A stretch of 64,000 nucleotides of DNA from an uncultured archaeon (GTDB taxonomy: Archaea; Asgardarchaeota; Lokiarchaeia; Sigyniarchaeales; SOKP01), in assembly GCA_964493715.1 (NCBI GenBank), contig CAZBPC010000001.1, positions 87,032 through 151,031 on the forward strand, written 5' to 3'. Positions within the stretch are counted from its first letter, which is position 1, and each line of letters begins with the position of its first letter. Below the pieces are notes generated by a model. The model saw only the letters and a program-made list of their open reading frames with translations. It did no database searches and was not told the DNA's origin. Below are positions 2,143-41,474 of this stretch, in pieces. Made by a program: the position numbers and the translations under genes.

Positions 2143-2550
2143 ATGCCAATAGTATCGTTTTCTATAAATGAAAATCTCCGAGAGTTTATTAATAAGTTGG
2201 TCTCACGAAATCAATATGAGAATAAATCAAAGTTGATAAGAGACGCCCTTTTGAGATTAATGTCAAGCATGGATGTAGCAAGCATTGAATCCTTTAGTAA
2301 TTTAGCCCCATTGGGTAAATCGATTATTGGGAATCTCATTATTGTAATGCCACATGATTCAATAAAAAAAATGAATAAGATAGAAATAGAATTTCAAGAG
2401 TATATTATAAGCAAAAATCAACATTTTCAAGGAGATAACGCGATAATTTTCATGATAATCGAGACGAGTATAGAAATATTTCAAAGATTTGTTGTGGAAA
2501 TAAATGGAATTGAGGAAATCTCTAATTTTCGATACATGATTATGAACTAA
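2143..2550 (+). CDS. Ribbon-helix-helix (CopG/NikR-like) transcriptional regulator
   Basis: N-terminus IVSFSINENLREFINKLV...SKLIRDALLRLM fits the RHH beta-strand plus two helices. The about 80-aa C-terminal domain has a NikR-like (ACT-like) layout but lacks most Ni-binding His residues. Confidence 0.6.
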   Translation: MPIVSFSINENLREFINKLVSRNQYENKSKLIRDALLRLMSSMDVASIESFSNLAPLGKSIIGNLIIVMPHDSIKKMNKIEIEFQEYIISKNQHFQGDNAIIFMIIETSIEIFQRFVVEINGIEEISNFRYMIMN

Positions 2551-2655
2551 TTTTCATTATCTCGTTTCTTATTTAAAAACGAAGTCAACTTTAAAATAAG
2601 TGTTACTTTTTATCATATATTTAAGTGTATCAAACTTGAATATTGGAAATGAAAC

Positions 2656-3795
2656 ATGGCTGTAGATCAAACATATATTAAAGATGTCCCTCAAGATGTA
2701 TATCGTAAATTGCAGCAGCATCTTGATACTTTACCTATTGGATATCCACCAACCGAATCGGGAACCGATTTAAAAATTTTGAAATTTATATTCTCACCTG
2801 AAGAAGCACTAATTGGAATTAACTTGAGATTGATTCCTGAGCCATTAAAGACGATTCATAGGCGAATGAAAAAATATGGTATAACTCTAGAGCAACTTGA
2901 GAATGCTTTGAAAAATATGTACAAAAATGGAGCAATTAATGTTAAGAAAGTTGAAGGCGAAAAAGGAGAAGAGATTTATTATCAAAATGCTTTCTTAGCT
3001 GTTGGTATGTATGAATATCAATTGCATCGCATGGATGCGGAGTTTTATGAGACATTTGAGCAATATATGGATGAAGTATTTAGAGATGAGGTGGCGAGTA
3101 CAAAAATCAATCAATTACGGACTATTCCCGTGGAACAAAGCATAACTCCAGAACATAATGTTGCAACTTTTGATGAATTAAAGAATCTCATTGAAAATGC
3201 AGAGAGAATAGCTGTACAAGATTGTGTATGTCGACAAGGGAAAGACCTCATAGGAAAACCTTGTAAACAATCAGATTTGAGAGAGGTATGCTTTGTGTTA
3301 GATAGTTCTGTTCAACATATTTTAGATAACGAAAAGGGGCGGGAGATAACAAAACAAGAAGCATATGATATTTTCGAGAAAGTACAACAAGCTGGATTGA
3401 TTATTCAACCTGGAAATGCCATTAAACCAAATTTTATTTGTTGTTGTTGCGGTGATTGTTGCGATATGATAACGAACATAAAAAAATTAGATAGACCCGC
3501 TGATATGATGCATAGCAATTTTTATGCGGAAGTTGATGGGGAATCTTGTATCGGTTGTGGTACTTGTGAACAACGTTGCCAACTCGACGCTATTTCATTA
3601 GAAGATGGTGGTGCTATAGTGAGTAAAGAATTATGCATAGGTTGCGGTAATTGTACAACTACTTGTCCTGAAGGAGCTATAACGTTAAAAAGAAAGGAGA
3701 AAGAATTTATTCCAGTAAATTCAAGTACAGAGCTCTATTTAAAAATCATGCATAAAAAAGCCGAACTGCGCCGAAAAGAGAAAGGATTGGAATAA
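2656..3795 (+). CDS. 4Fe-4S dicluster domain protein (Cys-rich Fe-S oxidoreductase component)
   Basis: Two ferredoxin motifs, CIGCGTCEQRC and CIGCGNCTTTCP, plus an upstream Cys cluster CCCCGDCC and CVCRQG...C. Confidence 0.75.
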   Translation: MAVDQTYIKDVPQDVYRKLQQHLDTLPIGYPPTESGTDLKILKFIFSPEEALIGINLRLIPEPLKTIHRRMKKYGITLEQLENALKNMYKNGAINVKKVEGEKGEEIYYQNAFLAVGMYEYQLHRMDAEFYETFEQYMDEVFRDEVASTKINQLRTIPVEQSITPEHNVATFDELKNLIENAERIAVQDCVCRQGKDLIGKPCKQSDLREVCFVLDSSVQHILDNEKGREITKQEAYDIFEKVQQAGLIIQPGNAIKPNFICCCCGDCCDMITNIKKLDRPADMMHSNFYAEVDGESCIGCGTCEQRCQLDAISLEDGGAIVSKELCIGCGNCTTTCPEGAITLKRKEKEFIPVNSSTELYLKIMHKKAELRRKEKGLE

Positions 3796-14231: not shown

Positions 14232-14287
14232 GAATTGACGTAAGCAGAACAATTTACTATTAATACATTTGTTTGGGATTCAGGCTA

Positions 14288-14358
14288 TGCGCCTGCCGGG
14301 GATCGAACCCGGGACGCTAACTTGGGAAGCTAGCATATTACCACTATACTACAAGCGC
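14288..14358 (-). tRNA. tRNA-Gly (anticodon CCC)
   Basis: Reverse complement GCGCTTG-TA-GTAT-AGTGGTA-ATAT-G-CTAGC-TTCCCAA-GTTAG-CGTC-CCGGG-TTCGATC-CCCGG-CAGGCGC-A folds into a 71-nt cloverleaf. Confidence 0.9.
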
Positions 14359-14402
14359 AAAAATTGAAGTCTAATGTTAATAAATGAGAAATTCTAAATA
14401 AA

Positions 14403-24770: not shown

Positions 24771-25880
24771 TCATGATACTGGTTTATAGAGAACATTCAA
24801 ATCTTCAGCATAACGTCTAACTTCTAATAATTCTTGAGTAGTGGGTCTACGATTAATTTCAGAATGTTTATAAGCCAAATATTCTGGCCTGTATTGACCC
24901 ATAATGTTTACAACGCATTTCGGAATCTCTCTTGCTATATAATCTAATATTGGCTTCGAGCAGCATTCCACGTGATTAGGCATGACTAGGTGTCGAATTA
25001 TTATTTCTCTACTTCCATAATCGTGAATTCGTTTTAAATTACGGGTTAGGATATCATAATATTTTTCTACTCCCGAATATTTTTTAGCACATTCATTATT
25101 ACCATATTTAAAATCAGGGAGCCAAAAATCAATGAAATCGATTATGAGAGCTAAAGATTTCACGGTTAAATAAAAATTCGAATTCCATAGCTGAGTAATG
25201 TTGGATCGTTGAAAATTTAGGCTTCCGATTATCGTGTGAATATTTGGAATCGGATCACCTCCTACATAGTTGATGTTTATCGCACCCTTGTTTACTAGAT
25301 TCTCTGCTAAATTTGCTAAGTCTTCGACAGATACTCTCTTTGATACATCTTCAATTGATTTAGATTTCCATGATTGAGAGATATCATAATTTTGGCAAAA
25401 AACACACCCGAAATTGCATCCTTGAAAGAAAATCGTACCGCTTGGAATCAATGGTGCTTCTTCTCCCATGTGCAAAAAAGCAGATGAAACGAATGAATCT
25501 CTTGTAATTTGACAATAACCTTTCTCATTATTTAATCTATTAGCTTTGCATTGCCGTTCACAAAAGTTACAAGCCTCCAGATATCTCTCTGCAAGCGTTT
25601 CAGCTAATGTTAAGTAATTTTTTGGAAAAATTTGACGATCTTTTAAATTTTCAACAGGTTCTTTTAATAATTTGTTGAAGTCTACAGATAAGCTTTCTAA
25701 AATTTCCTCAAGTTCTTCAGTTGAACTATCGGTATTAAAATCGCATTGAACACTTTTCGCAATCAAGTAACGAGCAATTTCATTATTATCGATAATGCCA
25801 CGATACCTTGAAAAACGTTGGAATATTTCTTGATATTTCCATACTTTTTCAGAATCAGATTTGAGTATCTTAAAAACCAT
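24771..25880 (-). CDS. Radical SAM enzyme, PflX-like (pyruvate formate-lyase activase homolog)
   Basis: CNFCERQC...GYCQ...HMGEEAPLIPSGTIFFQGCNFGCVFCQNYDIS contains the CxxxCxxC radical SAM cluster with the upstream auxiliary Cys motif. Confidence 0.8.
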   Translation of the reverse strand: MVFKILKSDSEKVWKYQEIFQRFSRYRGIIDNNEIARYLIAKSVQCDFNTDSSTEELEEILESLSVDFNKLLKEPVENLKDRQIFPKNYLTLAETLAERYLEACNFCERQCKANRLNNEKGYCQITRDSFVSSAFLHMGEEAPLIPSGTIFFQGCNFGCVFCQNYDISQSWKSKSIEDVSKRVSVEDLANLAENLVNKGAININYVGGDPIPNIHTIIGSLNFQRSNITQLWNSNFYLTVKSLALIIDFIDFWLPDFKYGNNECAKKYSGVEKYYDILTRNLKRIHDYGSREIIIRHLVMPNHVECCSKPILDYIAREIPKCVVNIMGQYRPEYLAYKHSEINRRPTTQELLEVRRYAEDLNVLYKPVS

Positions 25881-25947
25881 AATTTATACTAATGTAATGT
25901 ATGAAGGGATTTTTATAACAATTTTCTTTAAAAAAAGGGGAATTCAT

Positions 25948-26679
25948 TTAGGTCTCAAATGTCAACCAGCTAATTATATTTTGAAGAAACTTCAAATTAT
26001 CTCCCGCATCAATCCCGAAATCAGAGTCTTCAAGTAAGAATTCAGAAGAACCAACTGTCACGCATCTTCCTGAAAAAAAGTCAGATACAGCACAAACAGG
26101 TACTGGTCCGATTACCCCGATCTCTCCATCTTCAGAATACTTAAATTCTGCTTTTTCAGAAGTCACAATGATATCCTCCACGTCTTCTTCAGAGATAGTA
26201 AAAAAAGTGCAGTTTGGTAGAACTACTTCAGTTATTCCACTGGTTATGGGATGATTATAAAGTTCATTAGCTATTATATTACTTCGATTTACTAAGAAAT
26301 GTGAACCAGATTCCTGAATAGCGCCATTCCAAAACCGTCTTACTCCTGTCATTTTATATAAGACTCGAATTGACCCCTTTTTCATGGGAATGTCCATGTC
26401 TCCACCTTCGCCACTTGTTAATAAAAGTGCTCCACCTTCTCCTACGTACTTTTTTATTGCTAGTAACTCATCTTGAGTGAATTTATCTGCTTTTCCCTCG
26501 GGAGTGTGTTGAACGTTTCCAATGAATAAGAGATCATAATCCTCAAGAGTTTCAAAATCAATAGGTCCTTCATTCTTATCTATATAATCGATATCATAAT
26601 CTTCCTCACCTAACGCGAACTCTGGCCACTCTTCCACTCGTTCTCGATGTGAAAGGTCGATTAAAATACTATCACTCAT
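25948..26679 (-). CDS. Hypothetical acidic protein (possibly glutamine-amidotransferase-like / DUF4350-like fold)
   Basis: DYDLLFIGNV...LLAIKKYVGEGGALLLTSGEGG ... GDNLKFLQNIISWL resembles the layout of GldG/DUF4350-type proteins. The match is weak. Confidence 0.3.
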   Translation of the reverse strand: MSDSILIDLSHRERVEEWPEFALGEEDYDIDYIDKNEGPIDFETLEDYDLLFIGNVQHTPEGKADKFTQDELLAIKKYVGEGGALLLTSGEGGDMDIPMKKGSIRVLYKMTGVRRFWNGAIQESGSHFLVNRSNIIANELYNHPITSGITEVVLPNCTFFTISEEDVEDIIVTSEKAEFKYSEDGEIGVIGPVPVCAVSDFFSGRCVTVGSSEFLLEDSDFGIDAGDNLKFLQNIISWLTFET

Positions 26680-32514: not shown

Positions 32515-33378
32515 TTAAGGAAACAGTTTTATAAGGAGGTTGCTTAATTGATGTTGTTCCCAACTATTCTTCGATGCCTTTTTTGCCATGTAATTAGTAA
32601 GTAATACTCTTGCTCCTTTGTATGCAATCTTTCTATCTCTATCATTAGATACTAGTGTATTCACTTTTTCTTTCACATGGAATTCCATTAGGAACTGAAG
32701 CACTCTAAAAAAAACATCGTACATAAGAAGTCTGTCATCCTCATAGATCTCTTTTCCATTGTGAACAGCATCGTTTCTTGCCTTGTTTAATAGGATCAAA
32801 TCCTTCTCTAATTCGATGGGAAATTTTAATTCTTTTATCTTGTCTGGCATTGGTAGTGTATCATCTTTTTCAAATACTCTCTCGTGATATAGCTCGATAT
32901 TACCGATTAACCGGATCAAGAATCGAAACTCGTCTTCAACTCCTTTTTTTTCTAAGTTAAGGTAATCAAACATTTTTAACCAAGAATCAATATTAATTAC
33001 TTGTAATTCCTTTTTAACTATTTTTTCTATAGAATAGACAATATTATTATCCTCAATATTACTTATTCCATTTTTTTCAATTACTATGGTTCCTTGCACT
33101 AACCCTTGGATTCTTCTGGCAATCAACTCGAGTAATTCTTCTCGTTCCTCAAATTTTTGTTCTAATTCTGATGCATGTAAATCCATTGTTTCACTTTTTG
33201 AATTATTATTTTCTTGTAGGTTCTTGATAAAGAAAGGAAACAATTCGATAATCTCATCTAATATTATAGCACGCTGGTTTAATATAAGTTGCTTCATCTC
33301 TTTTGGGCTGATTTCATTTCGAGAAAATTGGATGATTTTTGTTTTGAGTAAATCAAGCTTATCGTGATCAAATATCAC
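32515..33378 (-). CDS. Hypothetical protein with C-terminal HEPN-like RNxxxH motif (last gene of four-gene operon)
   Basis: LILLNKARNDAVHNGKEIYEDDRLLMYDVFFRVLQFL: R201-N-D-A-V-H206 (nt 32761-32778) in a helical context, as in HEPN/DUF4145-type domains. The N-terminal half is coiled-coil-like. Confidence 0.35.
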   Translation of the reverse strand: MIFDHDKLDLLKTKIIQFSRNEISPKEMKQLILNQRAIILDEIIELFPFFIKNLQENNNSKSETMDLHASELEQKFEEREELLELIARRIQGLVQGTIVIEKNGISNIEDNNIVYSIEKIVKKELQVINIDSWLKMFDYLNLEKKGVEDEFRFLIRLIGNIELYHERVFEKDDTLPMPDKIKELKFPIELEKDLILLNKARNDAVHNGKEIYEDDRLLMYDVFFRVLQFLMEFHVKEKVNTLVSNDRDRKIAYKGARVLLTNYMAKKASKNSWEQHQLSNLLIKLFP

Positions 33379-33425
33379 TTTTTCTGCTAGTCCCTTAAGA
33401 ATATCTATTGAATTTATGTTCGTTG

Positions 33426-36400
33426 TTATGCGTTCTCTCCTCCTTGTTGGATGCTGGTATACTCTTCTAATACCTGAGAGATCTTTTGGTGAGATTTCAA
33501 TAATTCATGACATGCTTCTTTCTGGGTTTCAACAGAAATCGTAAGTGTTGATGGATAAGCAAGATAATTAAATACGTCCTCTTCAGATAAAGGAAACCCA
33601 TCCATTGTAACTAAACTTTTCAAGAAACTCTCTCTTGATTCAAAAACTCCGATTTCGGGGAGTTGTTCTATTCGAGCTTGAATGTTGGAAACATACATCT
33701 CGGATAGATCTTGAGCGATGATTAATGCATGTTCGAGATTTCCCTTGTTTAAATCCCTCTCTATTTGGAACAAGTTCCATTGCAAGATATCAATCAATTC
33801 GGAACGAATAATAGCTTTTACACTTTTTACGGGTAGTTTTTTTATCATTGATCCTTGAGTTGGGAGGAACTTAAAATCGGGAATGGATTCAGATTGCTGG
33901 TCCATTATTTCAAAATCGATGTTGGCAATTGTTTTCCTTCGTGTTTCATAATAATCTTCTAAGACTCTATCAAACTTTGGTGAGACTTGGTATGAAGAAC
34001 GAACGGATTGACCACCACTGGCTTGAGCAGGGTGACTCTCTACCAAGTAACCCCTATTGAAAAGGATATCTAAAATCTCATCCCTCATCTTATTCACTAT
34101 TTTCCTATCTTGATTTATCAATGATAATTTGGAGTATAAAATATTCTTAAGTTCTTCTCGAATCTTGCTCTTATATAAATTACCTACCGTATGTACGGTT
34201 TTCAAACTTTCCAAGAAGGTAATGATTTCAGGGATCAGATGAGAATATTCCCCCATATCCTTTTCAAACACCGTTTTTTGTGCCCGTTCCAAGATCACTC
34301 TTTCAGCATTTTTCATATTAAATCCTTGGGCATCCATGTGAGTGATAATTTCCTTCCAATCGAGTGAGTCTAATTTCGCTAATTGACTCGAGTCAATTTT
34401 CACCGGAAATGGTTGATAAATATCAGTACGTTTCATTATCGCTTCAGGAGGACTCATGGTCATTAAATAACGTGTTTGATACAACTCATTACGAGATTTA
34501 CTATACATGCCCGTTCCATGCATTTCTTCAAGGTTTAACAAGTTTCTAAGAGTGGATATGTCACGAGGATCGATCGCTTTAAATGCAATGTAATTATCAA
34601 GGATGGTGAGCACGTGTGGATGGAGATGATGTACTTGATCGGCAGAACAGATGAAGCCAAATCCTTTTTGCAATAATGGAGTCATGAACTTGGATATTTT
34701 CCCATATTTCATCGGTTTTTCAAGAAAGTAGACATCAAATATGAGATCCAGATGGGGAATAACTAAAAATTTGGGGATATACTGATCATTAAAGTTTAGA
34801 TAATGAATAAATTTTGCCACCATCAACCATGTAAAAAAGACCTGTTTATTTAAATCCGATGATCCTGAGATATCTATGATTATGGTTTTATCCGTTTTTA
34901 AATACTCTAAAACTGATGAAACAAAATTACTCTCTTCATATTTACTAAACAAGTATGTAGTATCTTCTGCTGAGAATTCTTCAAGAGTAGCAATGATTGA
35001 TTCGACGCCGTTTCTTTTTTCGTGGTCTGGTAAATTTTTTACATGAGTTACAAGCGTGGAATAATCAACACTAGAGTCATCGTCTTTTTTAATTGAGGAG
35101 AGCTTCGAAAGTGAATTTTTAAACAATGTAACCGTTCCCTCATCTTTCTTAAAGCTCATTTCATATACATCTAACATCAAGTTCAAAAACTCGAGATTGT
35201 GGGCATCGTATGAGATCTCAGAATGGATGGGATCGATCGTAATGGTTCTCCCTAATTTATAGTAAAGAATCGAATTTTCATGTTCCGTTCCCTTAAAAAG
35301 CCTGATCATTTTTGACCAATTGCCTGAATAATCAAAAACAATGGAATTTTGATTTTGCTTGATGAGTTCAGCAACTATAAGCATTGAAACTGTTTCCCTA
35401 TTTTGAAATGTTCCATTCGTGATTAAAGAACGTTTAGCTTGAGCTTCTGTGAATCCAGCGTCAATTTCTCTACCTAAAAACTCAGTATTGATAGTAGTTC
35501 CGATATTTATATAACTTTCTAATTGTAATGGAGTATTAAATTCCGCAGCAATTTTAGTTTCAATTCCTTTCTTGAATTCATTAGCAATGGTGATGAAAGA
35601 AGTTAATGTGGTACCTTGTGTGATCATGTAAGGTAAGTAAGAACCTTTTAACTGAGTAAACCTGGTTTTGAGTGAACTCACGGTAAGGGCAGATTCCAAG
35701 TGATTTTTTTTGAGTGGTTTTATATTAAAAGTAGAATAATACGAATGGAATGAAGTTTTAAGGATTATCGCATTCTCCCGAAGCTGAGATTCAAGGTCTT
35801 GAAAATCAGCAGTAGAGACGTTTTTCACACGTTTATACACGTGAGTAGTATAAATTCCTACTGTTTTCCATATGCCGGCTCTTTGTATCATCCACTTGTC
35901 TTCTTCTCGCTTATCTCTTATCTTATTCATGTGATATTGTTTTTCTGATCGACTCAAGTATTTTTTTCCTAATTTATAGAATCGATAGTAAGAAATTGCG
36001 CCGGTAATTACCGTGGTTCCAAAGGATATTCCTTGAGACATGAGTGAGCCATAGAATTTGCTATCATATGCATATACAGGTAATTTAACTTCATCCACGC
36101 TAAATGCTTTCAAACCTCCCAATAAATTATCTCCTATCTGGAAAAAAATCGTCTCAGGCGCTCGTGAAAAGCGATAGAAACGAATATCACTAAAAGGATT
36201 TATGGGAATGATCTCAGGAGAATTAAAATTCTTTTTTGAAAAAAGCTGAAACAAGGGTTCTTTCCACCAGCCCATGAGAATCAATCCTATCACTATACTA
36301 GATGATAAAATTGTCAGAATCCCATTTTTCCAAACCGCAGAAACCAATCCACCAACAACTATTGCAGTGATTAAGGTCATTATTGTTTTGGAAATAATTT

Positions 36401-37211
36401 TCATCGTTATTTTGATGTTATTCTTTATAGGATTACTTGGAGGAATATCTTGTTTGAGAAATATGGTTCTCAAGGCTTGTACGGCTTCATTTTTCTGCAA
36501 TAGAGTTATCTTGTAATGATGAAAGTTAGGGACAAAATCCGAATTGATAGTCAATGTTTTTGAGTGCAATGTTTCTAAGAATCGATTGAATCTATTTTTG
36601 GAAAAAATACCCTTAATCTCGTGAGATACTGCAAAATAGATAATAGTCCGAAATGGTGTCATTCTTGCCCCGTTTATCTCTTTTTTCAATGATGATATTT
36701 GCGTGGATGGGGTTAAGATGGGCTGTTGTATTACCTGGTAGGTAATGCTTTGAAAACGAGTTGAAAGCACTCTGATAAATTGCGTGATATTAGCATTAAC
36801 ATTTTCAGGCAACACCTCTACCCGAAAAATTCGTATTCCCACTGTGAGCAAATCTTCTCGATTAGTAAAAAAGATGGAATTTTGATCCTTGTTCAATTGC
36901 CAGAATGATAAAGATTTAAAAGGATTAAACGGTTGAGTAAAAAAACTTCGAGTTGAAAATATTAAAATGAAGACTATCATGAAAAACACGCAAAGAGGAA
37001 CGATTTTGAACAAGTCTGATGATAATAGATAACCATGTATTGCAATGACAGTGGTTAGTCCTAATAATACCCCTCGTTTAATCCGTACTGTATTTTGAGT
37101 AACATCTTTTTTAACGGGGCTTAAGGGCCAGATGTTAAGATACTTCTTGCTTTCATTTTCGTCTTCTATTTGGATTATTTTTGGTTTTAAATATTCAGCG
37201 TAATTTACCAT
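33426..37211 (-). CDS. Large (1261 aa) four-TM protein with HerA/VirB4-like P-loop domain carrying degenerate Walker motifs (hypothetical)
   Basis: Two TM hairpins (aa about 47-87 and 272-316). aa about 565-900 follow the HerA/VirB4 motif order, but Walker A is LITNGTFQNRET (not GxxGxGKS/T) and Walker B is KFLVIPHLDLIF (not hhhhDEAH). Also IVFDYSGNW and GFGFICSADQV. Confidence 0.4.
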   Translation of the reverse strand: MVNYAEYLKPKIIQIEDENESKKYLNIWPLSPVKKDVTQNTVRIKRGVLLGLTTVIAIHGYLLSSDLFKIVPLCVFFMIVFILIFSTRSFFTQPFNPFKSLSFWQLNKDQNSIFFTNREDLLTVGIRIFRVEVLPENVNANITQFIRVLSTRFQSITYQVIQQPILTPSTQISSLKKEINGARMTPFRTIIYFAVSHEIKGIFSKNRFNRFLETLHSKTLTINSDFVPNFHHYKITLLQKNEAVQALRTIFLKQDIPPSNPIKNNIKITMKIISKTIMTLITAIVVGGLVSAVWKNGILTILSSSIVIGLILMGWWKEPLFQLFSKKNFNSPEIIPINPFSDIRFYRFSRAPETIFFQIGDNLLGGLKAFSVDEVKLPVYAYDSKFYGSLMSQGISFGTTVITGAISYYRFYKLGKKYLSRSEKQYHMNKIRDKREEDKWMIQRAGIWKTVGIYTTHVYKRVKNVSTADFQDLESQLRENAIILKTSFHSYYSTFNIKPLKKNHLESALTVSSLKTRFTQLKGSYLPYMITQGTTLTSFITIANEFKKGIETKIAAEFNTPLQLESYINIGTTINTEFLGREIDAGFTEAQAKRSLITNGTFQNRETVSMLIVAELIKQNQNSIVFDYSGNWSKMIRLFKGTEHENSILYYKLGRTITIDPIHSEISYDAHNLEFLNLMLDVYEMSFKKDEGTVTLFKNSLSKLSSIKKDDDSSVDYSTLVTHVKNLPDHEKRNGVESIIATLEEFSAEDTTYLFSKYEESNFVSSVLEYLKTDKTIIIDISGSSDLNKQVFFTWLMVAKFIHYLNFNDQYIPKFLVIPHLDLIFDVYFLEKPMKYGKISKFMTPLLQKGFGFICSADQVHHLHPHVLTILDNYIAFKAIDPRDISTLRNLLNLEEMHGTGMYSKSRNELYQTRYLMTMSPPEAIMKRTDIYQPFPVKIDSSQLAKLDSLDWKEIITHMDAQGFNMKNAERVILERAQKTVFEKDMGEYSHLIPEIITFLESLKTVHTVGNLYKSKIREELKNILYSKLSLINQDRKIVNKMRDEILDILFNRGYLVESHPAQASGGQSVRSSYQVSPKFDRVLEDYYETRRKTIANIDFEIMDQQSESIPDFKFLPTQGSMIKKLPVKSVKAIIRSELIDILQWNLFQIERDLNKGNLEHALIIAQDLSEMYVSNIQARIEQLPEIGVFESRESFLKSLVTMDGFPLSEEDVFNYLAYPSTLTISVETQKEACHELLKSHQKISQVLEEYTSIQQGGENA

Positions 37212-38066
37212 TTACCAATACCTCCATTTTTTCATGGCATTATAATATAGATATCCAAGTAACAGAATGCTAACTAAGAAGAAAATCATGAGCATTCCAA
37301 CCGCTTCCAGCGAGTTCGGCATGATGATTGTTTCTGCAATCAATAAAGATTCGAAAATTCCCAATAAGATGATGAATCCCAATATAACCAACCATCCGAT
37401 TCCTTTTTTAGAAGCTACGTAATTCGGATTATCTTTCAATCTTCCTTGAACAGGTATCTTGCGATTATCATTGCGATTAAGGGCGGACCTTATCTTCTTT
37501 AGCTGTAATGAAGTTTCTAATACGTCCCCATTCATTCCGTTCTGTAAATGAGAATGGAGTTCTCTTTCTCTTTTTTCAATCTCATCAATGAGGAGATCTC
37601 TCACCATTGAAGAAGAATCATTTGGAGTTTTTCTTGAAAATAAGTTAAAAGACCTAGTATTCGAATAATCTTGTCTTCTTAGCGTTCGGGTAAAGTTATT
37701 AAATTCTGGTATCCTTATCTTGCGAATATCATAATAAAGCGCGATAGCATCTTTTAAATGGTTTTTTGGTAGATTTCCATCTGATTTGAAAAAGAGCGTT
37801 TCAATGATTTTAACCCTATTGATCATATCAGCAGGGATTAGATTGATTCCTAAATGGACGATATAGCGATTTATTCGTTCCAAGAAATAATGGATAAACT
37901 CATCCTTTCTTGGATCTCTCCTACCAATTTCTAATTTAATACCTATCATATCCACATGATTACTAATAAGTTGCAAAGTGGTAGCTGAAAGTTTAGCGTG
38001 ATTACCACTCATTATACATCTTTCCACCAAAGTTTCAAATTTATTATCCATTAAATTCATCATCAT
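37212..38066 (-). CDS. Hypothetical protein, helical cytoplasmic domain plus two C-terminal TM helices
   Basis: Its ATG overlaps the upstream stop by 4 nt, and its TAA abuts the next ATG. C-terminus GIGWLVILGFIILLGIF...VGMLMIFFLVSILLLGYLYY. Confidence 0.5.
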   Translation of the reverse strand: MMMNLMDNKFETLVERCIMSGNHAKLSATTLQLISNHVDMIGIKLEIGRRDPRKDEFIHYFLERINRYIVHLGINLIPADMINRVKIIETLFFKSDGNLPKNHLKDAIALYYDIRKIRIPEFNNFTRTLRRQDYSNTRSFNLFSRKTPNDSSSMVRDLLIDEIEKRERELHSHLQNGMNGDVLETSLQLKKIRSALNRNDNRKIPVQGRLKDNPNYVASKKGIGWLVILGFIILLGIFESLLIAETIIMPNSLEAVGMLMIFFLVSILLLGYLYYNAMKKWRYW

Positions 38067-38863
38067 TGTTTTTTTAACCTCTTGCTATTCTTTCTTTGAG
38101 ATTGAAATTGCTGGTATGCAATTTCGATTTTTTGGTCAACTCTACCTTCTCCTTTTAAAGGTGGCGTCTTGTGGGAACGCGTGATTAATTTTTTTTGTGA
38201 GATTAAAAAGGCATCTTCTTCCGCAATGAGTTGGTCCAAGTTAACAGATTCTTTAACTGCTTGCATTTGAATCCTCTTCTTGGGAATTCTTGAGTGTTGT
38301 TCAAAGGTGGTGGCTACTTTATAACAAAAAAATGCGTATGGAAAAGTCAAGATAAACCCCATACATTGAAAATAGTAGCCAATTCCGATTCCTTGATATA
38401 CATAAATGGAAAAATCACCGTTTTCAACAACCATTCCTGGAAAAAATAACCCATTAGAGAAGAGGATCATAAAAGGAAATATAATTATCATAAGAATTGT
38501 CATAAAGGTAGTTGAGAGGAAGAAATAAGAATTGGATCTAGTTGTTTCCAAGTTAGACACAGTTTCTGGGTTTCTAAATAAAGCGATTACTATCGAACCA
38601 ACTAATAAAAAAACTTGGATAAAACTCATCATTGGTGATATCATGTAATTTTGAGGAATGTATTGATTTAACAAGCTGCTTTCAAGATGTTTGATAGTAG
38701 CCCAACCATTTAAGATTTCATAAGTGCTTTCCATGAGCTTTTGCCCGATATCATTCCGAACTTCCACGGAAAACCATTCTAAAAACAATGAAACGAACGT
38801 GAACAAGAGTCCAATGATAAAAAACAGCTTGAGCAAGTCAGCCGATTTTTCATAAAGTTTCAT
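38063..38863 (-). CDS. Hypothetical polytopic membrane protein (first gene of operon)
   Basis: About 5 hydrophobic segments and a basic C-terminal tail (QSQRKNSKRLKKQ). Confidence 0.5.
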   Translation of the reverse strand: MKLYEKSADLLKLFFIIGLLFTFVSLFLEWFSVEVRNDIGQKLMESTYEILNGWATIKHLESSLLNQYIPQNYMISPMMSFIQVFLLVGSIVIALFRNPETVSNLETTRSNSYFFLSTTFMTILMIIIFPFMILFSNGLFFPGMVVENGDFSIYVYQGIGIGYYFQCMGFILTFPYAFFCYKVATTFEQHSRIPKKRIQMQAVKESVNLDQLIAEEDAFLISQKKLITRSHKTPPLKGEGRVDQKIEIAYQQFQSQRKNSKRLKKQ

Positions 38864-39293: not shown

Positions 39294-41474
39294 TTAGTCA
39301 TCCAAAAACGACTGGTATTTAGAAAGAATGGCATTATTTTGATTCAAATCTTGCTCTCTTTCAAATTCAGTTTCTATGGACAAGGGTTTAGTTTCGAATG
39401 GTTCATGATTCCCTTGGTCATTTATCATGGTTACCTTCTCTTTTTTAGGTTCATAAATTGATTTCTTACTTAAGAAAGCCGTGAAACTGTTTTTCTTTAA
39501 TTTAACAGGTTTTTCTACCCTCCTATAAGTTACTTCGTACTCAATTTGAGTCATCCATTCCTCAGAAAATTCCTCGCTTATGAGGATGAGGTCTTCCTTA
39601 GGAAGAACAAAGCGTTTCTCGTAATGGGGAGTCTTAAATTGAATTGTCATGTTGTTAGTTGCTTGAAAATAGCGATAGAAGACAAGTGCAATGGCCCCCA
39701 AATATATAAAAATCAACGCAAATCCTAATGATGTAAACAAGCGCACTAAATCTCCCATTTGCATTGCCAAGAAAAGTGAAAACAAAGCTCCAAATCCTAA
39801 AAAGGGTAGGGAATAATTCTTCGCGTTTCTATAGAACGAATTTTTCATCTTAAGTTGTTTAATGAGCGCGTTTGAAGAGGAGCCTTGAGTTGTTAACAAA
39901 GTGTACTTATGCTCCAAATATTCTATTAACTCTTGTAGTTCCTCCAGTTCGATAAAATGCATATTAGAAGAATATTGATAGGGAAATGGGATGGTTTTCT
40001 CAATGGATGAAACAGATTGATTGGTTATGAGTATCGGATCAATGATGATCTTGTATTCAACGTCTCCTGATGTTATAAAAAGTGGTTTTTGCTTAATACC
40101 TCTCTGAACAAGGATCTCCAATCCAAGGTAATTTGATAATAAAGTGAAAAGAGTCCCTTCATTTGTAAAGCTTTCAAACATTGCATCAGAAACCTTCTTG
40201 AGCTGTCTTAAGTGAGCTTCTGGAATGGAATCTGGAACATATCTTAATGAGGAAGCTTCATTTGTGCTAAGATGCTTCAGGATTCTTTTTTCAGATACCA
40301 TTAGGCAATTTCGAGAGAGGAAGTATTTTATAGGCATGAGTATTATTAAACGGGTGTTATTAGACACCGTAATGACCTTGCATCCCAAAAAGTCAATTCC
40401 CCGTCGAAATTCCCTCATATCTTGTCTATTTAAAGGTATCTCGTGAAATTGTCGATCTTTTGCTATGCTTGAAATTTTTTGATAAAATTGATTCCTCTCA
40501 AATTTAGGTGCTGTTTCTTGTGATGAATTGCGATTTATTTTTGGTATTGATGCTCGAAAGGGTTCGGGTAATTTGATCAATGTATCTTCCATTTCAGGTT
40601 TACTTACAAGAGGTTCCATTTGCAACTTGTTCATATCAGCACCCTTCTTATCAAAATTTACTCTTACACTAGAGCGAAAAACTTGATTTCGAAAGGGTTT
40701 TACCTCATCTTCTTCAATAAAGCAAGGTTTCTCTACTTCAAATTCTTCTTCAATTACTTTCTCTTCATTAATTTTAGGAGGTTGTTCTTCTGATTCAACA
40801 TCTGATGTTAAGGAATCATCCATCTTTTCTTCATTAAGCGAATTTGAAATCATTTCGCTCTCATTTCGTTCTTGATCTTTACTGGCATTAAACCATTCAT
40901 TGAGGTTATTAATAATTACTTTACTTTTATGAGATCGTAACGTTAACCTTTCTTGAGGAAGGAGTCTTTTTGGTTCTGATGTGGAAAGGTCTTGGATATT
41001 GGGGATTGTTTCATATCCATTAGTGCATTCCTTTGCATTCGTTATTATCTTATTTGCGGTAGCGACCCCGATTCCGGGTATGCAAGCTATTTGATCAGAT
41101 GTGGCCCTTGCTATCTCTTGAATGGTATTAAACCCGTTTGATTTCAATTTCAAGGCAAAATTCGGCCCGATCCCTTTCACACTCGTGAGATCTTCACATT
41201 TTTCTTGATTTACTTGAAAATTAATTTTGGATACTTGAAGCTGATTATCATGTAAATTCCTGGACTGAGCAAGTTGGTCCAAAACTTCCTTAAATCTTGC
41301 AGTCCATTCTGCATTTTCTTGAATTTGAGCTTCATTTAATGCATTCTCAGCAAATTTCATCGCTTGCGCGATATGATTTTCATTGACTAACTCTTGCAGA
41401 TTTTCAAATAAAAATGCGAGATCCCATTTTTTATCTACTTGAAGTGTTCCATTCACGCTAACCATAATTTTCAA
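39294..41474 (-). CDS. Hypothetical membrane protein with N-terminal tandem HhH DNA-binding module
   Basis: LTSVKGIGPNFALKLKSNGFNTIQEIARATSDQIACIPGIGVATANKIITNAKE, an acidic linker, a globular middle domain, then two TM helices (LPFLGFGALFSLFLAM..., FALIFIYLGAIALVFY). Confidence 0.5.
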   Translation of the reverse strand: MKIMVSVNGTLQVDKKWDLAFLFENLQELVNENHIAQAMKFAENALNEAQIQENAEWTARFKEVLDQLAQSRNLHDNQLQVSKINFQVNQEKCEDLTSVKGIGPNFALKLKSNGFNTIQEIARATSDQIACIPGIGVATANKIITNAKECTNGYETIPNIQDLSTSEPKRLLPQERLTLRSHKSKVIINNLNEWFNASKDQERNESEMISNSLNEEKMDDSLTSDVESEEQPPKINEEKVIEEEFEVEKPCFIEEDEVKPFRNQVFRSSVRVNFDKKGADMNKLQMEPLVSKPEMEDTLIKLPEPFRASIPKINRNSSQETAPKFERNQFYQKISSIAKDRQFHEIPLNRQDMREFRRGIDFLGCKVITVSNNTRLIILMPIKYFLSRNCLMVSEKRILKHLSTNEASSLRYVPDSIPEAHLRQLKKVSDAMFESFTNEGTLFTLLSNYLGLEILVQRGIKQKPLFITSGDVEYKIIIDPILITNQSVSSIEKTIPFPYQYSSNMHFIELEELQELIEYLEHKYTLLTTQGSSSNALIKQLKMKNSFYRNAKNYSLPFLGFGALFSLFLAMQMGDLVRLFTSLGFALIFIYLGAIALVFYRYFQATNNMTIQFKTPHYEKRFVLPKEDLILISEEFSEEWMTQIEYEVTYRRVEKPVKLKKNSFTAFLSKKSIYEPKKEKVTMINDQGNHEPFETKPLSIETEFEREQDLNQNNAILSKYQSFLDD

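Follow-up and report, generated by a model that had tools for sequence, protein, structure and literature searches.

Results

The gene and its place in a five-gene cluster

The stretch of DNA analysed here (the window) comprises 64,000 nucleotides (nt) of an uncultured Lokiarchaeia archaeon (assembly GCA_964493715.1, contig CAZBPC010000001.1, positions 87,032 to 151,031) and has a G+C content of 33%. The gene in question is found on its minus strand at 32515..33378, where an open reading frame (ORF) caller gives a two-domain protein of 287 amino acids (aa) starting from GTG. It is the terminal member of a tightly packed run on that strand, 38063..38863 (266 aa), 37212..38066 (284 aa), 33426..37211 (1261 aa) and 32515..33378, with junctions of 4 nt and 0 nt, and 30 nt beyond it lies the end of a convergent ThiF gene. 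Together with a helix-hairpin-helix (HhH) protein these genes read as a vertically inherited cluster of five, namely the HhH protein, two small membrane proteins, the 1261-aa membrane protein, or large subunit, and a small subunit, which is the protein studied here. A preliminary description of the locus had drawn attention to the motif R-N-D-A-V-H in the terminal gene of the operon, a placement that the gene run bears out, and had taken it for the signature of a HEPN ribonuclease (RNase).

The protein is probably 304 aa rather than 287 aa in length, because the 17 in-frame residues that precede the GTG are also conserved in homologues with an ATG start (TTNINSIDILKGLAEKV compared with TTDVNSLDILKGLVEKV). 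The match to the profile of the N-terminal domain begins at this extension, and the probable full coding sequence, of 304 codons plus the stop, is 32515..33429 on the minus strand. The translation start region (33427..33443, minus strand) was compared with the same junction at four related loci (L001, L004, L011 and L015). Both the window and the homologues carry a Shine-Dalgarno-like GGAGGAG (33437-33443 in the window). At the position where the window has ATA (33427-33429), which overlaps the TAA as ATAA, the homologues have an ATG, overlapping the stop of the preceding gene as TAATG or ATGA. The start of the window gene is probably non-canonical or coupled; the full-length form may start at the ATA, or the GTG may instead give rise to the 287-aa form. 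In public gene calls the protein has 260 aa, shorter than the version from the ORF caller. The residue numbers used here, R201 and H206 among them, are those of the 287-aa ORF with the GTG start.

Conservation of the RNDAVH motif

At 32761..32778 on the minus strand the codons AGA AAC GAT GCT GTT CAC encode R-N-D-A-V-H, residues 201-206, the predicted catalytic Rx4H motif of a HEPN domain. The motif is present just as the preliminary description gave it, and the flanking peptide, DLILLNKARNDAVHNGKEIYEDDRLLMYDVFFRVLQFL, agrees with the one quoted there. The Rx4-6H pattern alone is no evidence for such a domain, since it is found in 23 of the 44 long ORFs of the window at 0.86 per 287 aa, when 0.875 would be expected from the R and H content of the 287-aa protein itself; RNxxxH occurs less often (0.03 per 287 aa). 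As far as the sequences can tell, the signal comes from conservation.

Among the close homologues, which are 62-76% identical, R201, N202 and H206 are invariant (13 of 13), and across the whole protein conservation is highest in the 15-aa windows of aa 180-202, which lead into the motif. More distant relatives were collected by an exhaustive profile search of 1.84 billion representatives, which gave 181 of them. An alignment of 30 C-terminal domains (C-domains), termed A2, comprises the window protein, four close homologues and 25 distant relatives, the latter sharing 18-31% identity with the window protein. With a mean column identity of 30%, R201 and H206 are the sole invariant columns of A2, present in all 30 sequences down to 18% identity, and the polar N202 after the R is retained in 28. 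The preliminary description had named conservation of R201 and H206 in homologues as a check on its reading, and had counted the Asn after the Arg as part of the HEPN signature; both points are supported by the alignment.

A divergent HEPN domain

By the published definition (Anantharaman et al. 2013, PMC3710099), a HEPN domain consists of two α-hairpins forming an up-down helical bundle; helices 2 and 3 are separated by an insert, the R of the motif is followed by a polar residue, and helix 2 frequently has an acidic residue. The AlphaFold2 (AF2) model of the C-domain calculated from the diverse alignment (mf7d70765bf60; pLDDT 92.7, pTM 0.88) is an all-helical bundle, with helices at residues 106-127 (+130-139), 150-169, 188-207, 213-240, 246-268 and 272-285. 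In the model, an insert (66-83 in C-domain numbering) with a short helix at 177-183 separates helices 150-169 and 188-207, and the motif, R201 to H206, lies at the C-terminal end of helix 188-207, running into the loop before 213-240. This topology agrees with the published definition, as the preliminary description had anticipated in proposing structure prediction as a test of the fold. The model, the profile and the Pfam and Foldseek matches described below place the HEPN core at aa 106-240 (32659..33063, minus strand). The last two helices, 246-268 and 272-285 in the secondary structure of the model, form a C-terminal extension specific to the family found here (32524..32643, minus strand); a short variant (P0065) is without it, matching profile positions 7-136 only. 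The AF2 model of the full-length protein is poor in the N-terminal half (pLDDT 62), and a Foldseek search with it was uninformative.

The best sequence match of the family profile is to HepS, the HEPN 'solo' anticodon nuclease of the Gifsy-1 prophage (PDB 9oij; PMC13043305). The A2 profile matches HepS with E=1.9e-4 and 24.5 bits and aligns the motif with the catalytic R100 and H105, both of which have been found experimentally to be needed for tRNA cleavage (PMC13043305). Against the chain of the H105A mutant of HepS the score drops to 15.6 bits, which indicates that the aligned histidine corresponds to the catalytic H105 and that the rest of the block contributes ~15 bits.

Weak Pfam matches among the 30 members of A2 converge on six families of the HEPN clan, all below threshold. 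DUF4145 is matched by 9 of the 30 diverse members (best E=6.7e-4) and by 7 of 14 close members, always over the motif region, and the others are RiboL-PSP-HEPN (3 of 30, best 3.9e-4), HepT-like (2 of 30 members only, E>=0.034), Swt1-HEPN, Ribonuc_2-5A/KEN and Apea-HEPN. DUF4145, to which the preliminary description likened the domain, is the closest Pfam family, although its gathering score of 23.1 bits is never reached (close homologues score 11.3-13.4 bits). Likewise, the proposed search with HEPN-clan profiles gives matches that converge on the clan, but all are sub-threshold and the window protein itself has none. Foldseek comparison of the C-domain model with the PDB gave a best E-value of 0.14, which is not significant, and TM-scores of 0.33-0.43; the matches with a probability above 0.5 are all HEPN proteins, namely the SO_3166 toxin (5yep, 0.94), Csm6' (8pe3, 0.75), HepS (0.66) and HepT (7ae6/7ae8). 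A fold search against the viral structures in BFVD gave nothing. A weak match of the C-domain profile to ZorA (E 0.2-0.36) was dismissed as chance, as were matches to PRKG1_interact and YpzI.

We regard it as very likely that the C-domain is a member of the HEPN superfamily that falls in none of its described families; it is previously unannotated and highly divergent. Some points weigh against this reading of the protein. The window protein reaches the threshold of no model in Pfam, NCBIfam, PADLOC or PHROG, and the match to HepS is a local one of 45 residues, centred on the motif. The canonical helix-2 motif Ex3[K/R] is not found at that spacing in A2; in and next to helix 150-169 the conserved positions are D149 (D/N/E in 27 of 30), K/R152 (26 of 30), R/K156 (25 of 30) and E162 (E/D in 19 of 29). 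Finally, with ATA in place of ATG in the window copy, expression of the full-length form is uncertain. The frequency of Rx4-6H in the ORFs and the absence of a significant E-value from the fold searches would be compatible with a chance Rx4H in an unrelated helical domain. This explanation is already largely refuted, and we consider it extremely improbable: R and H are invariant across the 30 sequences while all other columns vary, the profile matches HepS, six HEPN-clan families recur among the weak Pfam matches and the predicted topology is HEPN-like. Searches of the literature on Asgard archaea and HEPN turned up no account of the family or its cluster.

The N-terminal domain and its predicted RNase heads

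The remainder of the protein is a helical domain of ~115 aa (the N-domain; 33079..33429, minus strand), which is conserved as the small subunit of the cluster. The corresponding part of the profile (positions 1-115) also finds over 100 stand-alone proteins of ~115 aa, and no consistent Pfam match was found for the domain. The stand-alone proteins share the same operon slot, in the order HhH protein, ~245, ~283, ~1262 and 114-115 aa, with a convergent ThiF gene after the last (L011, L012 and L015), and the genes upstream of them are homologous to those of the window cluster. A profile of the N-domain (alignment A5) weakly matches the sigma-70 region 4 helix-turn-helix (HTH) structures 1rio, 1ku3 and 3n97 over positions 25-78 (E=0.05). 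The first half of the domain may be HTH-like, with a coiled coil after it. A reading as an 'EAD-like homotypic adaptor' is not supported, there being no second N-domain copy in the window or the loci.

A census of domain architecture covered 163 collected proteins. In 119 the N-domain stands alone and in 26 it is joined to the HEPN C-domain (13 of these being the close set); a further eight have another N-terminus before the C-domain, seven consist of the C-domain alone and three combine the N-domain with something else. Among these last are two that carry an NYN/Zc3h12a RNase domain, with scores above the Pfam cutoff of 23 (P0027, 27.9 bits; P0108, 29.2 bits), and P0027 is encoded directly downstream of a homologue of the 1261-aa protein. 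The short variant P0065, an N-domain with the HEPN core, likewise follows a 1261-like gene, and a distant full-length homologue (P0024) retains an operon of 284, 1274 and 282 aa. At another locus (L007, 3-1338) it is a 1261-like protein that carries the HEPN domain, fused at its C-terminus, and a separate N-domain gene comes next; this contig is only 1.3 kb long, so that the remainder of the fused gene is unseen. From the sequence this fusion links nuclease and large subunit in the Rosetta-stone manner.

The HEPN domain is thus, to judge from these architectures, a swappable, lineage-specific RNase head and not a core component of the cluster, because most orthologous clusters have the N-domain alone and others have NYN, or have HEPN on the large subunit. 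That most orthologous clusters are without a nuclease means that the complex does not need one. The preliminary description had called the protein the effector nuclease of its module. A HEPN RNase is indeed predicted, but the domain is optional, missing from most orthologous modules and replaced by NYN elsewhere.

It is quite likely, by analogy with characterised HEPN domains, that the domain is an active RNase. Non-catalytic HEPN domains do exist (PMC3710099), and given the non-canonical acidic/basic motif of helix 2 the domain here could be an RNA-, nucleotide- or protein-binding module, as are the HEPN domains attached to nucleotidyltransferases. This would seem improbable. Non-catalytic HEPN domains typically lose Rx4-6H (PMC3710099), whereas here R and H are the sole invariant residues and N is present in 28 of 30 sequences, and replacement by the NYN RNase fold elsewhere argues that it is RNase activity that is selected.

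Members of the HEPN family found here also occur outside the cluster, where they have an N-terminal zinc ribbon. In one such setting (L016, 3132-11550, and L017) the order is RmuC, a GmrSD_N+HNH gene, a 984-aa SMC_N/AAA_23 ATPase, the zinc-ribbon-HEPN gene and a metallo-β-lactamase/RMMBL RNase-like gene, and the pair formed by the ATPase and the zinc-ribbon-HEPN protein may be a two-gene defence candidate. Next to a zinc-ribbon-HEPN gene in L008 is a 151-aa ORF (2375-2827, minus strand) that weakly matches the motif region of the HEPN profile (E=4e-4) and may be a second, degenerate HEPN copy.

The zinc-ribbon proteins, together with the fact that HepS works alone (PMC13043305), raise the question of whether the domain could be a self-contained HEPN toxin, of the toxin-antitoxin or solo abortive-infection kind, that has no functional connection with the cluster despite being fused to it or lying beside it. 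We think this very improbable. Neither the operon nor its flanks contain an MNT gene or any other antitoxin-like one, and for want of a partner gene there a toxin-antitoxin reading was rejected; moreover, three independent links tie the RNase to the cluster, through the small subunit, the large subunit and the substitution by NYN. Attachment of an RNase to the complex in at least three ways supports its physical and functional coupling to that complex.

Other proteins of the cluster and their neighbourhood

The cluster was found in Promethearchaeota (Lokiarchaeia-type) and Hermodarchaeota, the named relatives being all Promethearchaeota except for one Hermodarchaeota metagenome-assembled genome (MAG). 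A search for related loci using the close alignment returned only two species genomes. In PADLOC-DB 2.0 the five cluster proteins are without a match at E<=1.

The first gene of the cluster (39294..41474, minus strand) encodes the 726-aa HhH protein, which matches HHH_5 (E=8.6e-15) and has a C-terminal membrane segment; homologues of it precede the cluster in L001, L004, L011 and L015. The 266-aa protein (38063..38863, minus strand) is a polytopic membrane protein and the 284-aa protein (37212..38066, minus strand) has C-terminal transmembrane helices. Both are conserved in position, with 30% and 27% identity, respectively, in L015. The 284-aa protein has a weak match to DUF2207_C (E=0.0028). 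The 266-aa protein weakly matches a PHROG family annotated as SieB superinfection exclusion (E=1.7e-4), which may reflect membrane-protein composition only.

The 1261-aa protein (33426..37211, minus strand) has no matches in Pfam, NCBIfam, PADLOC or, by single sequence and by profile, the PDB, and homologues of its family were found in Promethearchaeota MAGs only. A paralogue (P0175) matches DUF87/HerA over 174 profile positions at a sub-threshold E-value of 0.0055 and is itself encoded beside a bona fide DUF87 ATPase, and the central region of the 1261-aa protein (aa ~560-870) looks HerA-like. No member of the family has the Walker A GK[ST]; the 1261-aa protein of the window has LITNGTFQNRE at aa 596-606, a degenerate P-loop. 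The central region therefore looks, on sequence grounds, like an ATPase-dead HerA-like scaffold. A 33%-identical paralogue belongs to a different cluster (L013, 2518-13585), with a genuine 684-aa DUF87/HerA ATPase that ends in a C-terminal zinc ribbon, a 1252-aa orphan and MazE-like and SMC-like genes.

Two observations speak against a role in defence. The neighbourhood of the cluster is a housekeeping one, syntenic in relatives down to ~40% identity, with genes for a Hel308-like helicase, ThiF, proteasome beta, FKBP, a radical SAM protein and a GIFT-domain protein; and most clusters carry no nuclease. The same HEPN RNase could, by analogy with HEPN RNases tethered to a membrane or pore, such as Ire1 with its KEN domain or Swt1, serve in housekeeping, as the head for localised RNA processing or turnover of a constitutive Asgard membrane machine engaged, for example, in DNA or nucleoprotein handling. 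Such handling is suggested by the HhH protein and the HerA-like scaffold, and the conserved synteny with housekeeping genes, the apparently vertical inheritance, the lack of PADLOC matches and the weak matches of single members to the Ribonuc_2-5A (KEN) and Swt1 HEPN families all fit this explanation. The RNase is, however, missing from ~87% of orthologous subunits, which would be unexpected for a housekeeping enzyme, as would its exchange for NYN or its move to another subunit, and a paralogue of the same HEPN family is found in a defence-island-like context. A housekeeping role is consequently one that we consider rather unlikely. A stress- or invader-triggered, conflict-type role is possible and somewhat likelier than localised housekeeping RNA processing, though it too is proposed tentatively; we lean towards it because the zinc-ribbon-HEPN relative sits among an SMC-like ATPase, a GmrSD+HNH gene and RmuC.

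Some further features of the region were noted. In relatives a 651-aa SIR2_2+TPR gene (L001, 17957-19912) stands between the GIFT-domain and radical-SAM genes and is absent at the equivalent site in the window (~25880-25948); it reads as a variable insertion of defence-like character, interrupting a region that is otherwise syntenic. The GIFT-domain protein of the window (25948-26679, minus strand) has 243 aa and matches the IFT52 GIFT domain (E=5e-8). The GIFT domain is best known from eukaryotic intraflagellar transport. The sole RNA gene found in the window is a tRNA-Gly(CCC) at 14287-14359 on the minus strand.

Discussion

A model for the function of the protein

Taken together, it is fairly likely that RNDAVH is the active-site motif of a divergent HEPN domain carried on the small subunit of a membrane cluster, and that the RNase output is gated by the complex. 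That the domain acts as the output of a membrane complex is by itself a moderately probable part of this explanation. In a minority of lineages an RNase head would have been added to the complex, as HEPN on the small subunit, as HEPN on the end of the 1261-aa protein or as NYN on the small subunit. The N-domain would dock the protein on the membrane complex, where two HEPN domains may pair so that R201, N202 and H206 of each contribute to a composite, metal-independent endoribonuclease site. From what is known of HEPN biochemistry, cleavage of RNA by such a site would leave 2',3'-cyclic phosphate ends. The complex would presumably hold or release the RNase activity on a signal at the membrane.

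The cluster might then be a so far unrecognised, Asgard-specific, membrane-anchored surveillance machine, with the HhH protein binding DNA and with interchangeable RNase heads (HEPN, NYN or none), though this is a speculative and rather doubtful extension of the model. If it were true, the machine would be an archaeal, membrane-coupled counterpart of the sensor-tethered HEPN RNases of the Ire1/RNase L type or of membrane-sensing defence systems. RNA cleavage would provide a first functional handle on a fully unannotated cluster conserved in the archaeal lineage closest to eukaryotes, and a new HEPN family is defined that current Pfam, NCBIfam and PADLOC models miss. As a domain call, another divergent HEPN is unsurprising, and the interest lies in its context. 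The superfamily itself is well known and the domain is a new family within it; the arrangement is new as well, with interchangeable RNase heads borne by one adaptor subunit in an Asgard-specific complex, at the centre of which is a presumably dead HerA-like membrane protein. One adaptor, alternative heads and a natural fusion with the large subunit predict a physical complex and a testable output, and bring the cluster within reach of experiment.

Comparison with known systems

Several of the features that define the HEPN superfamily are found in the C-domain: a conserved Rx4-6H with a polar residue after the R, the helix and insert topology of the model, and profile similarity to HepS. With HepS the domain shares the block MPxKIK..L.LP..L...L...N.IRNxxxH, with the same four-residue spacing of RNxxxH. 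HepS is, however, a bacterial, prophage-encoded, single-domain protein that forms tetramers and has a phage tail-tip protein as its trigger (PMC13043305), whereas the window protein comes from an archaeon, carries an adaptor domain at its N-terminus and a two-helix extension at its C-terminus, and belongs to a conserved five-gene cluster. The two are alike over the local match only, and neither the full-length similarity nor the solo single-domain architecture of the HepS family is seen here.

DUF4145 (PF13643, HEPN clan CL0291) is the most frequent of the weak Pfam matches, and DUF4145 proteins are known with zinc-ribbon and sigma-HTH fusions (PMC3710099). The zinc-ribbon paralogues described above, and the weak sigma-4-like signal of the N-domain, are reminiscent of these fusions. 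The difference is that the gathering score is not attained in the family and that the window protein has no DUF4145 match. The HepT/DUF86 toxins (5yep, 6m6w and 7ae8) share RNxxxH, weak profile matches and the top Foldseek probability (5yep_C). They differ in that the domain here is larger, through its insert and extension, that the TM-scores are low and that the MNT partner is absent; with no nucleotidyltransferase in or beside the operon, the locus does not have the makeup of a HEPN-MNT system. Nor do the cluster proteins match an anti-phage defence system catalogued in PADLOC-DB 2.0.

The KEN domain of Ire1 and RNase L, and Swt1, are eukaryotic HEPN RNases that are held on a larger sensor or scaffold. 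The protein described here would follow a similar tethered-RNase logic, in keeping with the weak matches of single members to Ribonuc_2-5A and HEPN_Swt1, but it is without a kinase or PIN module and has no significant similarity to these proteins. Effector-swapping conflict systems are built on HerA/FtsK-type or other NTPase scaffolds, an example being the 'effector-associated domain' systems of the Aravind group. In contrast to these systems, the HerA-like domain of the cluster is without Walker A in all members, the adaptor is not duplicated on the scaffold, and the cluster is not island-borne but inherited vertically in a syntenic setting. What the cluster would appear to share with them is the principle of alternative RNase heads, HEPN, NYN or none, on a constant adaptor beside a HerA-like protein.

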